A stretch of DNA of 64,000 nt from Dictyostelium discoideum (GCA_000004695.1 CM000151.3:4544001-4608000), one strand, 5' to 3'; shown: positions 38,706-49,440, numbered from the stretch's first letter. Translations and numbers: made by a program. The notes: generated by a model not told the origin, from the sequence alone.

Positions 38706-38760
38706 TATTATTATTATTTATTATTACTATTTCTTTTAATTTTTTTTTTTTAAATAATCC

Positions 38761-38791
<31 letters not shown>

Positions 38792-38884: not shown

Positions 38885-38965
<81 letters not shown>
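38885..38965. repeat. poly(dT) tract ~80 nt (5' flank of minus-strand O-methyltransferase)
   Basis: Uninterrupted T run; longest homopolymer in window. Confidence 0.9.
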
Positions 38966-38989: not shown

Positions 38990-39400
38990 CTCCAATTGGT
39001 TGTCAAAGTAATTGGAATTTCATCAAATTCCTATAATGGTATATTTTACTTATTAAATGATAATAAATAGGCAATTTTTATAATTAATAAATGAGGTATG
39101 TCATTATCTTTAATATTATTATTGTTTCAGATTTATGTGTAAACAAATGAGTGAATTTTAAATTTTCAGAATTTAAACTATTTACAAGAATATTATTAAA
39201 ATAATTATCTATTATTCTTTATTTTGAGTAAATAAATTCAATAATCCTAATAAAAATTACCATTCAAAAATTGTAAACCAAAACCATGTAATAATTCACC
39301 CATTGCATCATTTCTAGTAACAGCACCAATACTTTCTATATGACAAAAATTAATAGCTAAAGTAGGTAATCCTATTCTTCCATATTTGAAAGTAGGTAAT
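38990..39400 (-). pseudogene. polyketide-synthase fragment (ketoreductase C-terminal / inter-domain region), degenerate
   Basis: The minus-strand translation GLPTLAINFCHIESIGAVTRNDAMGELLHGFGLQFLNGN then hits stops. It is clearly paralogous to IGLPALAINFGHIGSIGVVTRNDAISELLHGFGLQSMNGN in the 48.9-kb PKS remnant. No start codon and multiple stops downstream. Confidence 0.5.
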
Positions 39401-39589: not shown

Positions 39590-40764
39590 TTAAGACAATG
39601 AAAAAGAATTTTTAAAATCAGAATTTAAATCATCTGTATTATAAAATGTTAATGGTATTGTTTTAACCACTTCAATACTTTCATTTTTAAATGACTCTTT
39701 TTCTTTTTCTTTTTGTTCCTCTTCTTTTTTTTCTTCTTTTTTTTCTTCCTCTTTTTCTTTTTCTTCATGATCTTGGGCTTTGGATGTTAAATGAAAATGA
39801 TAATCTGGTGATGGAATTAAGTCAACATTATCATTACCACTTAAAAGTCTGATTAATTTGAGGAATGGTTTTTCAAGATTAAAATTTGTTCTAACCGATA
39901 GTTCAAAATATGAAATATTCTTTTTACGATGAAATATAATCTGACTTGGGTTAATTCTTTTACCCATTGATTCTACTTTATTACCAACTAAAACCATTGG
40001 AACCACCTTACCTGTTATTCTTAATAATTCATTAAACCAATCGTTAACGCTTCTATATGATTCTCTTGAACAAACATCAAACATTATAATTGCACATTCC
40101 GCTCCAGTCCTATTACAATAATATTAATTAATATTAATATTAATACAATAAATGTTATTTTTTTATATTTATAGTGAATGGAGAGTGTGAGAGTGAGAGA
40201 GAGAGAGAGTGAGTGAGGTATACTTACATATAATCATCTCTCATAGCTCCAGGTAATCTAGTAAAAGCCATATCCCAAATACTGAAATTAACATCACCAA
40301 TAGTTGTTTTAAAATTAAATTTATGAACACTACAACCAAAAGTTGCTAAATAAAAATAAATAAAAATAAAAATATTGGTTATTATTATTTTGGACTGATA
40401 GTTTAATTTAAATTAAAGAGAATAATAAACCTACCAACATATTGAGTTTCAAATTCACCTGTTAAAAGTCTATTTATATAGGTGGACTAATAATAATATG
40501 ATATTAGTATATTTAAATATATTTGAAAAAGTTTATATATATAAAACCTACTTTACCAACTCCACCATCTCCAATTAATACTAATTTAATTTCTTTAGTA
40601 TTGTCAAATTTTTTAACTACTGGTAATGATGGTTTATTTTTTGATGATGATAATCCCAATGAAAATTGCGCACTTGATGGCGATGCTGCTGTTGTTGTTT
40701 TTGGTGTTCCAAAATCAAATGGTGGTGCTGTTGGTGGTGGTCCAAATTCAAATAGTGATGCTGT

Positions 40765-40861
<97 letters not shown>

Positions 40862-42068
40862 CCCAATCCAAACGGTGAACTTAATGGTGATGGTGCTGTT
40901 GGTGAACCCGATCCAAATGATGGCGTACTTGGTGGTACCAATCCAAATAATTCTTGTTCTATTTTTGTAATTTGTCCATATCTAAATGGTGGTGCTGTTG
41001 ATGGTGATGCTGTTGTTGTTGTTGTTGCTACTGTGTTTGATGATCCCGATTCAAATGATGGTGCTGTTGGTGATCCCGATCCAAATGATGGCGTACTTGG
41101 TGGTACCAATCCAAATAATTCCTGTTCTATTTTTGTAATTGGTCTATATCTAACTGGTGGTGCTGTTGGTGTTGATGCTGTTGTTGATGCTGTTGTTGTT
41201 GTTGTTGTTGTTGCTACTGTGTTTGATGATCCACCAAATCCCGATCCAAATGATGGTGCTGTTGGTGATCCCGATCCAAATGATGGCGTACTTGGTGGTC
41301 CAAATCTAAATAATTCTTCTTCTATTTTTGTAATTGATCCATATCCAAATGGTGATGCTGTTGATGTTGATGCTGTTGTTGTTGTCGTTGTTGCTGCTAC
41401 TGTGTTTGATGATCCACCAAATCCTAATGAAAATGCATCTCCTGATGGTAAAAGTGGAAGAGGTGAAACAAAACGAACGTTATCATTACCACTTAATATT
41501 TTGATTAATTGAATGAATGGTGTTTCAAATTTATAATTTGATTTACTTGAAATTTCACAATAGTGAATATTCTTACTACGATGAAAATTAATTTCCTTTG
41601 CTTTAACTTTACGATCTTTGATATCAACTTTATTACCAACTAAAATAATTGGTATATTATTACCTAATTCCTTTGTTAATTCATTAAACCAACTTGGTAC
41701 ATTCCTATATGAAACTCTTGAAGAAACATCAAACATAATAATTGCACATTGACTTCCAACACTATTATAATATATATATAATTAAATATTTTAATATATA
41801 TATATATATATATATACTTTTAATTATGAATTTTTTAAAATAAACTTACTAATATAAATGTCTAAATACTTCAAATTTTTCATCACCACAAGTATCCCAA
41901 ATATCAAAATTAACATTGCCGATATTAGTGTAAAGAATTAGATTACTTAGTTCTACTCCAACCGTAGCTATATTTTTATTTTATTTTTTTTATGTTTTTA
42001 TAATTAATAAAAATAAAAAAAAAGTTAACTATTTTCATAATAATAGTAATAATAATAATAATAATAAC

Positions 42069-42127
<59 letters not shown>

Positions 42128-42673
42128 TGATTTTAATGATACTTACGAATATGGCTTTTTTGAAATTCGCCTATTATATGACGTTTTAAAAATGTAGTCT
42201 AATTAATTCATGATAATAATAATAATAATTAATAATTAATAATTAAAAATGTAAAAATAATAATAAACAATTACTTTACCTTACCAACACCACTATCACC
42301 AACTAATATTAATTTGATGGGTCCATTTTTCTGTGTATTTTTTATGTTTTATGTGTATGTTAGTATATATATTTTTTTTTTTTTTATATTTAATGAAATA
42401 AATAATTTATTTTTAAAAATATATATATATATATATATATATAATTTACAATATCAATTGGTTTAATATTTTGATAAGCTTTTTGTTCAATTGGACTATG
42501 ATCTTCATCCTCAATTGGTATTTGTTCTCCTATTGCTTTTTCATAAGATGAAAGTAGCTCCGAATCAATATCACTAATATTAAATGTTGACTAAAAGTAA
42601 GAGAGTATTTTTAAAAAAAAAAAAAAAAAATTAATAAAAAATATTAATAAAAAATATTTTAAAATGGTAATAT

Positions 42674-42716
<43 letters not shown>

Positions 42717-42725
42717 TGTTACCAT
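39590..42725 (-). CDS. tandem Ran-like small GTPase: Ran-like domain 1 + FG/S/T-rich repeat linker + degenerate Ran-like domain 2 (about 9 exons: ~42725-42723, 42590-42450, 42330-42280, 42198-42147, 41967-41850, 41761-40552, 40487-40436, 40346-40228, 40109-39590)
   Basis: Domain 1 is spread over 5 small exons (KLILVGDSGVGK|TTFLKRHIIGEFQKSHI|PTVGVE...NFDIWDTCGDEKF...HLYY|VGSQCAIIMFDVSSR...NKVD...FHRSKNIHYCEISSKSNYKFETPF). ORF 40513-41736 continues without a stop through ~300 aa of repeats (PSTPSFGSGSPTAPSFGSGFGGSSNTVATTTTT) into a second G1 motif KLVLIGDGGVGK. Three more small exons follow, then ORF 39590-40084 (MFDVCSRESYRSVNDW...NKVE...). All donors are GTAGGT/GTAAGT/GTAAAT/GTAAAG. No Met or stop lies between domain 1 and domain 2. 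The first exon may be ATG only (aaaATG|GTAACA at ~42723). Confidence 0.55.
42047..42125. repeat. (ATA/AAT)n microsatellite inside intron of Ran-like gene
   Basis: ~26 trinucleotide units between exons ~42198-42147 and 41967-41850. Confidence 0.85.
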
Positions 42726-47709: not shown

Positions 47710-47974
47710 AAATTAATAGTAATTATAAAATAAAAAATAAATAACATTTAATCTAATTTCAAATACTCATTTTCTAACAAGGAATCTGTGATTTTTATAA
47801 TAGTAAAAAATTAAAATATAATACACAACTGTATATCAACATACACCCTCCCCCTCATATCTCATACGATTATTGAGAATAAGTTGAAATGTATGTAAAT
47901 TTATATATAAATAAATATATATATTTTCAAAATGATATTTTTATTATTTTATTTTGTTTTTTAAAAAATAAAAT

Positions 47975-49440
47975 GCAAATGGAGTTTGACAATAAAAGTA
48001 AAAGCAAATATCAAAATGATGTTGCCATTATTGGGTTGGGTTTTAGGTTAACTGGTAACTCAAACTCACCCAAATTATTTTGGTTTGTATTTTACTTTTA
48101 AAAAAACCACACACATATATAAAATATAAAATAATATTAATAATTTGATAATATTATAATCATAGGAATAATTTAATTAATAAATTTGATGGCGTTGTTG
48201 AAATTGATAGATGGAGTAAAAACTATTATTTAAATAATGAAATTAAAAATCATCAAGGTGGTTTAATATCATTAGAAGAACAAATAAAAATGTTTGATCC
48301 ACTTTTCTTTTCAATTCCACCATCTGATGCTGAAACAATTGATCCACAACAAAGACTACTTTTAAAATGTATTTATAATAATTATATATACTTAATGATT
48401 TTTATATAATATATATATATATATATATTAATTATTTTATAATATGATAGGTGTTTGGGAAGGATTTGAAGATGCAAATATTGATCCAATTAAATTACGT
48501 GGTAGTAATACAAGCGTTTACATTGGTTTGTTTATCCACAAATGATTATTTTAATAATTTAAAAAATACAAAGGAAACCTTAACTAATGTATTTGGATCA
48601 TCAGCACACAGTGAATCAAATAGAATTAGTTATTGTTATGATTTTAGAGGTCAATCAATTCACGCCAAAGAGCTTTTTTGAAAAGAAGAATAAAAAACAT
48701 TAAAAACCAAAAAAACTTGAAAAGCATAAAAACTTTAGGTTGTATTTATCTTCATCAACTATCATTAAAATATAATTGGAAATTAAAGAATTTTATAATT
48801 CCATCATCTATATCATCTCTATTTGGTGTTCAAAATCAATGTGGTTATGTTAGTGCTAATTGTATTAGATAGTTTTGCAAAGTATAGAAGATCAATTGGT
48901 TTACCTGCTTTGGCTATTAATTTTGGTCATATTGGAAGTATTGGTGTAGTTACTCGAAATGATGCAATCAGTGAATTATTGCATGGCTTTGGTTTGCAAT
49001 CTATGAATGGTAATATTTTGTTAGGTTCATCAGATTTATTTAGTCAAAATAAAGAAATAATTGATAATGATTATAGTAATATTATTGTAAGCAGTTTAAA
49101 TTTTGAAAATTTAAAATTCAGTCATTTGTTTACAAATAAATCTGCTTTTAAACTTAATTCAATATCAAATAATAATAATATCTATGGTAATAACAATAAT
49201 AATAATAATAGTAAGGATATATATCTCAATTGGTAATTTCAAAAATTGACTATTTATTATCAATTAATTAATAAAATATTAATTCAAATATACCATTATC
49301 AGAATTTGGCGGAGATAGTTCAATAATTACTCAAATTAAAAATTGGTTAGATAAATTTAAAAATAACCACTTTACAATATCTGAAATTCAAAAATATTCA
49401 ATTAATGATATAATTAAAAAATTAATAATTAACAAATAAG
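47975..49440 (+). pseudogene. polyketide synthase remnant: KS N-terminal fragment fused to KR C-terminal region and ACP, with frameshift(s) and a large internal deletion
   Basis: KS start MQMEFDNKSKSKYQNDVAIIGLGFRLTGNSNSPKLFW; then (GTTTGT...AG intron) [21 protein letters not shown]...[43 protein letters not shown] frame slip follows, then [48 protein letters not shown]. Next come KR C-terminal/linker YRRSIGLPALAINFGHIGSIGVVTRNDAISELLHGFGLQSMNGNILLGSSDLF and an ACP-like EFGGDSSIITQIKNWLDKF...*. AT, DH and most of KS/KR are missing. Confidence 0.6.

Follow-up and report, generated by a model that had tools for sequence, protein, structure and literature searches.

Ran is normally encoded by a single-copy gene and is an extremely conserved switch (PMC13393502), and among other GTPases the pseudoGTPase domains pG1 and pG2 of p190RhoGAP, CENP-M and the psGD of AAGAB serve as structural or protein-binding modules (PMC5593906, PMC12490416). 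In surveys of dictyostelid GTPases, RanB is listed simply as 'a Ran homolog' and was used to nominate RanGEF candidates (PMC8923023). In the literature searched here, neither a description of the architecture of RanB nor a pseudo-GTPase of the Ran family was found; RanB is a protein that has been catalogued already and yet is unstudied, and its degenerate second domain is new to that literature. The locus was analyzed within a window of 64,000 nucleotides of Dictyostelium discoideum DNA (CM000151.3:4544001-4608000; positions below are counted from its first letter), an extremely AT-rich stretch (about 20% GC) with short GT..AG introns. We propose, with moderate confidence, that RanB contains in its domain 2 a pseudo-GTPase which is derived from Ran and retained by selection, within a Ran-like protein that would not cycle.

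The ranB gene extends on the minus strand from the start codon at 42725 to the stop codon at 39592-39590, and its nine exons encode a protein of 754 aa. Exon 1 consists of the ATG only (42725-42723) and is followed by exons 2-5 at 42590-42450, 42330-42280, 42198-42147 and 41967-41850 and by exons 6-9 at 41761-40552, 40486-40435, 40345-40228 and 40109-39590; all eight introns begin with GT and end with AG, and the frame is open over the 754 aa. Length and span of this model (754 aa; 3136 bp, start and stop codons included) equal those published for ranB (DDB_G0274943, DDB0229425, UniProt Q554Y4, 'GTP-binding nuclear protein Ran'; 754 aa, chromosome 2 4583590-4586725, 3136 bp; PMC6830349, supplementary tables), hence the degenerate domain is located in the 3' half of a curated gene. 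A start at the ATG at 42326, as given by a prokaryote-style reading of a single ORF, was discarded, since the in-frame test was negative and the true start is the ATG-only exon at 42725. The antisense ORF at 40523-41512 on the plus strand (329 aa with a poly-Asp run) mirrors the poly-Ser/Thr coding repeats of ranB and was not considered a gene. The exact 754-aa product had no match in a collection of 5.8 billion proteins in which neighbouring AX4 proteins are present, and homology searches with domain 1 and domain 2 returned no D. discoideum protein except a last-exon ORF from Logan; the notion of an unannotated gene or pseudogene that these empty look-ups had raised was dismissed, as the locus is ranB/Q554Y4 according to the literature supplements.

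In the automated annotation of the NCBI assembly GCA_054883475.1, the locus is cut into two genes with products of 121 aa and 665 aa (L004 1-3367, corresponding to window 42613-39247). The 121-aa product stops at a TAG that exists only if the intron-5 donor (TTA followed by GTAAGT) is read through, and the 665-aa product begins at Met131 and overruns the true ranB stop into a polyketide synthase (PKS)-like fragment. When intron 5 is spliced, HLYY is followed by VGSQCAIIMFDV and Ran sequence is regained, which shows the single-gene model to be the correct one and identifies the two-gene annotation as a mis-split of ranB, a practical point for users of this recent annotation. The short PKS-like fragment itself (GLPTLAINFCHIESIGAVTRNDAMGELLHGFGLQ) is located just 3' of the ranB stop at 39247-39372 on the minus strand, and in the annotation of GCA_054883475.1 it has been joined to the 3' half of ranB; it resembles an ORF at 48823-49236 on the plus strand and looks like pseudogene debris. 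Several short PKS-like ORFs in different frames at 47889-49236 on the plus strand (DVAIIGLGFRLTG..., GLPALAINFGHIGSIGVVTRNDAISELLHGFGLQ) suggest a fragmented or intron-rich PKS gene or a pseudogene. Homopolymers of about 30 A and about 80 T are present at 38760-38790 and 38885-38965, between an O-methyltransferase gene and ranB. An ORF near ranB matches succinate-CoA ligase beta of D. discoideum (XP_644183.1), and an Arf-like ORF in the window matches a D. discoideum protein as well.

RanB is expressed as a protein, at the level of RanB/Q554Y4: MS and RNA-seq data quantify it, with a down-regulation in early development (PMC6830349). According to published data, a Spy-dependent pulldown with anti-fucose-O-Ser enriched RanB 25-fold from slugs, and the AAL lectin captured it from vegetative cells; the same O-fucose pulldown table contains seven FG-nucleoporins and transportin. 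Moreover, ranB belongs to a six-gene co-expression cluster together with ranA, RanBP1 and two RCC1-domain genes. Only composition, co-expression and co-purification link RanB to transport factors.

The protein consists of a short N-terminal region, Ran-like domain 1, an FG-rich Ser/Thr/Pro linker, Ran-like domain 2 and a Glu/Lys-rich tail, and Pfam recognized two Ras-family stretches in it. Domain 2 (aa 513-680; 39815-40590 on the minus strand), the putative pseudo-GTPase, is encoded by the end of exon 6 and by exons 7-9. The original prediction had placed it at 39590-40552, which does span exons 7-9, but the P-loop begins just beyond this range, where exon 6 ends (about 40590). The strings quoted there were all found on the minus strand after removal of the introns. 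Domain 2 contains, in this order, GDGGVGKS, YVATFG, WDMAFTRLPGAMRDDYM, NKVE, FHRKKN and SVR. Motif G1 (GDGGVGKS) is encoded at 40572-40484 across intron 6, GEFETQYV/YVATFG ends at 40335, G3 (WDMAFTR for WDTAGQE of Ran, i.e., T66M, G68F, Q69T and E70R) is located at 40257-40277, G4 (NKVE, D125E) at 39971-39982, FHRKKN, the fully conserved basic patch of Ran (H139-K142), at 39917-39934 and G5 (SVR for SAK of Ran, i.e., A151V and K152R) at 39890-39898, all on the minus strand; FDVCSRESY is located in exon 9. Switch II runs on from G3 as LPGAMRDDYM across intron 8 to 40109, and its remaining positions are replaced as well (E70R, K71L and F72P). Intact in domain 2 are the P-loop, K23, the Mg ligands S24 and T42, and D65, and N122/K123 are present. 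The Ran-family forms of G1 (GxxxxGK[ST]), G2 (Thr42) and G4 (NKxD/E) are found in domain 2 as GDGGVGKS, YVATFG and NKVE, while the canonical G3 DTAGQE is replaced in both domains, by DMAFTR in domain 2 and by DTCGDE in domain 1.

Alignment to Gsp1/Ran structures, proposed earlier as a check, gave matches over the whole G domain for both halves of RanB, with E=8e-54 over residues 13-182 for domain 2 (next family Rab, 1e-19) and E=5e-67 for domain 1 (next family Rab, 5e-27); for both domains, Rab scored about 100 bits below Ran. The AlphaFold2 model of domain 2 (pLDDT 83.7, pTM 0.82), which was derived from an alignment dominated by canonical Ran and is biased to the Ran fold, superposed on Ran-GTP structures with a TM of 0.87 at 1.7-1.8 Å, and its best 50 Foldseek matches in the PDB were all Ran/Gsp1 (TM 0.85-0.88, rmsd mostly 1.6-1.8 Å). 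The claim that the Ran scaffold is kept is borne out by these comparisons. Domain 2 thus shows a kept fold and lost catalytic residues, as expected of a pseudo-GTPase on the basis of sequence and predicted structure.

The substitutions were weighed against 395 canonical Ran domains, a reference set whose members share at least 65% identity with the human Ran core. In this set, position 68 is Gly in 393 domains, position 69 Gln in 392, position 70 Glu in 389, position 71 Lys or Arg in 392, position 151 Ala in 376 and position 152 Lys in 378. The changes G68F, Q69T, E70R and K71L of domain 2 fall at positions that are 96-99% conserved, in line with the earlier statement that domain 2 lacks the G3 glycine and the catalytic glutamine; together with F72P of domain 2 and with Q69D and G19S of domain 1, they appear truly aberrant. 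The same does not apply to G4: Glu is found at position 125 in 86 of the 395 otherwise canonical Rans (22%), mostly from stramenopiles, e.g., Tribonema, Ectocarpus and diatoms (proteins P0178, P0179, P0213, P0004 and others). NKVE, which had been assumed to reflect lost guanine recognition, is therefore not diagnostic of it and was rejected as a pseudo-GTPase marker, being a natural variant of canonical Ran.

In small GTPases, the amide of the DxxG glycine is in contact with the gamma-phosphate and brings about the transition of switch II, and the Gln that follows this glycine positions the attacking water. Given the loss of G68 and Q69 and the rewritten switch II, domain 2 is predicted neither to hydrolyse GTP nor to switch between GDP- and GTP-bound states. 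The Ran fold, the P-loop and the ligands of Mg2+ and phosphate (K23, S24, T42, D65) are kept, and the intact P-loop, S24, T42 and D65 make us lean towards residual nucleotide binding by domain 2. The nucleotide would be held at most as a structural cofactor, and the altered G5 argues for weak binding, with an affinity that is probably lowered by A151V, a change which we take to correspond to the fast-exchange mutant A146V of Ras. Domain 2 may then act as a fixed binding module and not as a switch.

A stricter reading, namely that domain 2 is a class-i pseudo-GTPase which does not bind nucleotide and whose fold is used for protein interaction only, is unlikely but has a number of features in its favor: G3 is broken with a bulky Phe in place of the gamma-phosphate glycine, G5 reads SVR (A151V, K152R) and G4 carries D125E, and the switch I and switch II blocks show the lowest in-domain pLDDT of the model, with the minimum (pLDDT 65) in the switch II block. 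However, GxxxxGKS, T42 and D65, which are usually lost in known nucleotide-free pseudo-GTPases, are kept in domain 2, and NKVE is compatible with a functional Ran. Furthermore, Ras mutants in G60 and A146 still bind nucleotide.

With regard to the origin of the two domains, both halves of ranB possess three introns at homologous positions in phases 0/1/2 with internal exons of 52 and 118 nt, and domains 1 and 2 have in common a 1-aa insertion after Cys112 and 14 derived residues that are absent from canonical Ran, e.g., WFNEL for WHRDL and SGNDNV for IGDPNL. The matching exons and introns, the insertion and the derived residues indicate that domain 2 is the product of an internal duplication of a Ran-like unit with four exons, apparently of an already diverged Ran paralogue. 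Domain 2 has since changed at roughly double the rate of domain 1: where human Ran agrees with another canonical Ran (P0212), 37 private changes were counted in domain 2 and 17 in domain 1 (p=0.009). The dN/dS between the domains was 0.75 but is not relied on here, as synonymous sites are near saturation (pS 0.39) at a GC3 of 12%.

Stop codons arise easily in an AT-rich genome. When the coding sequence of domain 1 was mutated at random with an AT-biased spectrum to 82-108 differences, the likely share of domain 2 in the 163 differences observed, the frame stayed free of stop codons in only 0.28%-0.04% of the trials (P 0.003-0.0004), indels being ignored. Residues that are identical in domains 1 and 2 occur in clusters (runs test z=-2.25), which are hydrophobic-core and partner-surface motifs, with CAIIMFDV, WFNEL, LVGNKV, FHRKKN and SGNDNV kept, and the basic patch FHRKKN of Ran is perfect in domain 2 and not in domain 1 (FHRSKN). 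The domain 2 motifs WDMAFTR, NKVE and SVR were identical in four independent assemblies, namely three Logan genomic contigs from other sequencing runs and GCA_054883475.1 (4.9-Mb contig); the canonical DTAGQ/NKxD, which re-sequencing could have brought to light according to the original prediction, was seen in none of them. The sequence of GCA_054883475.1 differs from the window by three bases over 3684 bp, of which only L223P at the start of the linker (window 41459, codon 223) is non-synonymous, and those at I590 (40085) in domain 2 and at A693 (39776) in the tail are both synonymous. The open frame, the intact splice sites and the MS-detected protein together argue that domain 2 is kept by selection, and its open frame is very unlikely under neutral drift, so that it would not be a pseudogene.

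The possibility that domain 2 is instead a relic under relaxed constraint, i.e., a duplicate in decay that hitchhikes on a functional domain 1 and linker, is considered improbable. The two-fold rate at canonical positions would be expected of such a relic and the between-domain dN/dS of 0.75 would fit relaxed constraint; also in line with it are that no close orthologue surfaced in protein searches and that automated annotation cuts the locus in two. Against it, the open frame, three pairs of splice sites and the core motifs have survived about 53% amino-acid divergence, the stop-free frame is poorly explained by the neutral simulation even with indels not counted, none of the polymorphisms in domain 2 or the tail changes an amino acid, and it is domain 2 and not domain 1 that keeps FHRKKN perfectly.

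Even less probable is that domain 2 is an active GTPase with non-canonical catalysis, as in HAS-GTPases, which do without the glutamine. Some GTPase families do hydrolyse GTP without Gln, and the P-loop, T42, D65 and N122/K123 of domain 2 are intact; however, loss of the DxxG glycine and replacement of the whole switch II are not features of known active small GTPases, and G68 is conserved in all but two of the 395 Rans. An artefact, i.e., a sequencing error, a mis-assembly or a wrong gene model, as might be suspected from the absence of the exact 754-aa sequence from a large protein collection and from the two genes annotated at the locus in GCA_054883475.1, is already refuted for practical purposes, considering that the motifs agree base for base in four independent assemblies, that the model equals curated ranB in length and span and that the split annotation is accounted for by the TAG at the read-through of the intron-5 donor.

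The putative pseudo-GTPase domain is combined with a first G domain that is also altered. Domain 1 (aa 53-220; 41467-42318 on the minus strand) contains GDSGVGKT (G19S), HIPTVG, WDTCGDEKFEVFRHLYY, NKVD, FHRSKN and SSK in this order, and its G3 motif WDTCGDE (A67C, Q69D) is located at 41899-41879 on the minus strand. The exchange of Gln for Asp in G3 of domain 1 that had been noted beforehand (DTCGDE) was confirmed as Q69D, at a position that is Gln in 392 of the 395 canonical Rans. Judged from its sequence, domain 1 is predicted to bind nucleotide and to be GTPase-deficient. As G19S and Q69D affect the positions that are mutated in the GTPase-dead Ran variants G19V and Q69L, domain 1 is probably a GTP-locked mimic of Ran, and GAP-sensitive hydrolysis is predicted for neither domain of RanB.

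The FG-rich linker (aa ~221-510; 40600-41466 on the minus strand, exon 6) comprises about 300 aa and includes three tandem units of about 61 aa (SSNTVATTTT...ITKIEQELFG..PSFGSGSPTAPSFGSG; TRF periods 168-195 nt), a (TCA)35 poly-Ser run and the FxFG-like motifs LFEFG/PFDFG. It contains 13 FG dipeptides as compared to 1.9 expected by shuffling (P<5e-5), and 6 as compared to 1.0 after the tandem copies were collapsed (P=1.5e-4). With 26% Ser, 15% Thr, 12% Pro and 8% charged residues, the linker shows the enrichment of FG in a low-charge disordered region that characterizes FG repeats. The Pfam nucleoporin-FG models did not match the linker, nor did any Pfam family at E<=10, and its likeness to nucleoporin FG domains is a compositional resemblance only; this composition agrees with the capture of RanB by its O-fucose alongside seven FG-nucleoporins and transportin. 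At the C-terminus, the tail (39590-39814 on the minus strand) comprises a Glu/Lys-rich stretch (aa 696-720), weakly predicted as a single long helix, and a disordered end with ..YNTDDLNSDF..; the terminal DEDDDL is absent, and no confident docking of the tail on domain 2 was obtained in a model of both. Neither G domain is followed by the C-terminal helix and DEDDDL tail that form the C-terminal switch of Ran: domain 1 passes directly into the FG linker, and after domain 2 come the Glu/Lys-rich segment and a tail of low confidence, in which no more than an internal 'TDDL' is present. Both domains would thereby be free of the auto-inhibitory C-terminal helix of Ran. We propose that RanB may be a non-cycling scaffold in which the two G domains and the FG-like O-fucosylated linker engage nuclear transport factors.

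If RanB cannot cycle, the RanGEF candidates nominated on its account need to be reconsidered. With both G domains lacking catalytic residues, RanB would be the first Ran-descended pseudo-GTPase in the literature searched, and it occurs in a genetically tractable model organism.

Relatives with tandem Ran-like domains were retrieved by searching 50%-identity representatives exhaustively with domain 2 as the query and by earlier homology searches, namely P0250, P0226, P0231, SPRG_11234, SPRG_16874, P0121, P0122, P0002, P0228, P0359 and P0274, from Physarum polycephalum, oomycetes (Saprolegnia) and environmental or uncultured protists; no description of these proteins was found in the literature searched. 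P0250, a P. polycephalum transcript, encodes FG repeats followed by two Ran-like domains, P0226, on an intron-less environmental contig with dictyostelid-like poly-Q/N, has FG repeats too, and in the environmental P0231 SLFG repeats are located between two Ran domains; the Saprolegnia proteins SPRG_11234 and SPRG_16874 and the environmental P0121, P0228, P0359 and P0274 have two Ran-like domains in one chain. In most of these relatives one domain is degenerate in G3, switch II or G4, as exemplified by WCCAGQ/NKFH/VAD in P0226a, NKVE with Q69F/L in P0228 and a deletion in switch II of P0122b. In an NJ tree of the individual Ran-like domains, P0226a and P0250a grouped with 97% bootstrap support, and P0226 and P0250 are orthologous domain by domain; domains 1 and 2 of RanB grouped with 39%. 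A homology search with P0226 was dominated by poly-N/Q words and plant fusion models. These proteins are like RanB in that they have two Ran-like domains per chain of which one is usually damaged, with FG repeats in P0250, P0226 and P0231; they differ from it in domain order and in the position of the FG repeats, which are N-terminal in P0250 and P0226, and their second domain retains an acidic DDDDL-type tail that domain 2 of RanB does not have. Orthologues of RanB have been reported from D. purpureum, D. lacteum and P. pallidum, with a domain architecture that is not conserved (Forbes et al.).

Degenerate tandem-Ran proteins recur in several protist lineages, and together with the FG-like O-fucosylated linker of RanB this suggests a design that can be reused to bind transport receptors and that needs no GTPase cycle. 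As a speculation to which we assign a low probability, RanB might belong, along with the tandem-Ran/FG proteins from Physarum and further protists, to an undescribed class of non-cycling Ran mimics, in which a GTP-locked and a switch-dead Ran-like domain together with FG repeats in an O-fucosylated chain would bind importin-beta-type receptors constitutively via Ran- and FG-binding surfaces and could thereby buffer the Ran gradient or tune it spatially at the nuclear pore without RCC1 or RanGAP.

Among characterized proteins, canonical Ran/Gsp1 (human RAN, yeast Gsp1 and D. discoideum RanA) is the best match of RanB in sequence and fold, with 59% and 48% identity of domains 1 and 2, respectively, to the human Ran core. 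RanB and canonical Ran have in common the P-loop, T42, D65, N122/K123, the core motifs and, in domain 2, the basic patch, and both are without a lipidation motif. RanB differs in possessing two domains per chain, in the lack of G68, Q69 and a canonical switch II in domain 2, in G19S and Q69D of domain 1 and in the missing C-terminal helix/DEDDDL switch, and has the FG-like linker and the Glu/Lys tail in addition. Domain 1 is comparable to Rnd1-3, RhoH and Ran G19V/Q69L, as changes occur at the equivalents of Ras G12 and Q61 (G19S and Q69D); substitutions of the Rnd1-3/RhoH type predict a constitutively GTP-bound, GAP-insensitive state, which may extend to domain 1. However, Rnd1-3 and RhoH belong to the Rho family and Ran G19V/Q69L are laboratory mutants. 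Domain 2 is similar to pG1/pG2 of p190RhoGAP, CENP-M and the psGD of AAGAB in that the GTPase fold is kept and the G motifs are degenerate. These pseudoGTPases have lost most G motifs and do not bind nucleotide, whereas domain 2 of RanB is derived from Ran and keeps G1, G2 and part of G4. Finally, FG-nucleoporins and Ran-binding FG proteins (Nup62, Nup214, Nup358/RanBP2 and Nup50/Nup2) resemble the linker of RanB in being FG-rich, rich in Ser/Thr/Pro, low in charge and disordered, and RanB co-purifies with FG-Nups in O-fucose pulldowns; known FG-Nups bind Ran via RanBD domains and have no Ran-like G domains of their own, whereas RanB combines such domains with an FG-like linker in a single chain.
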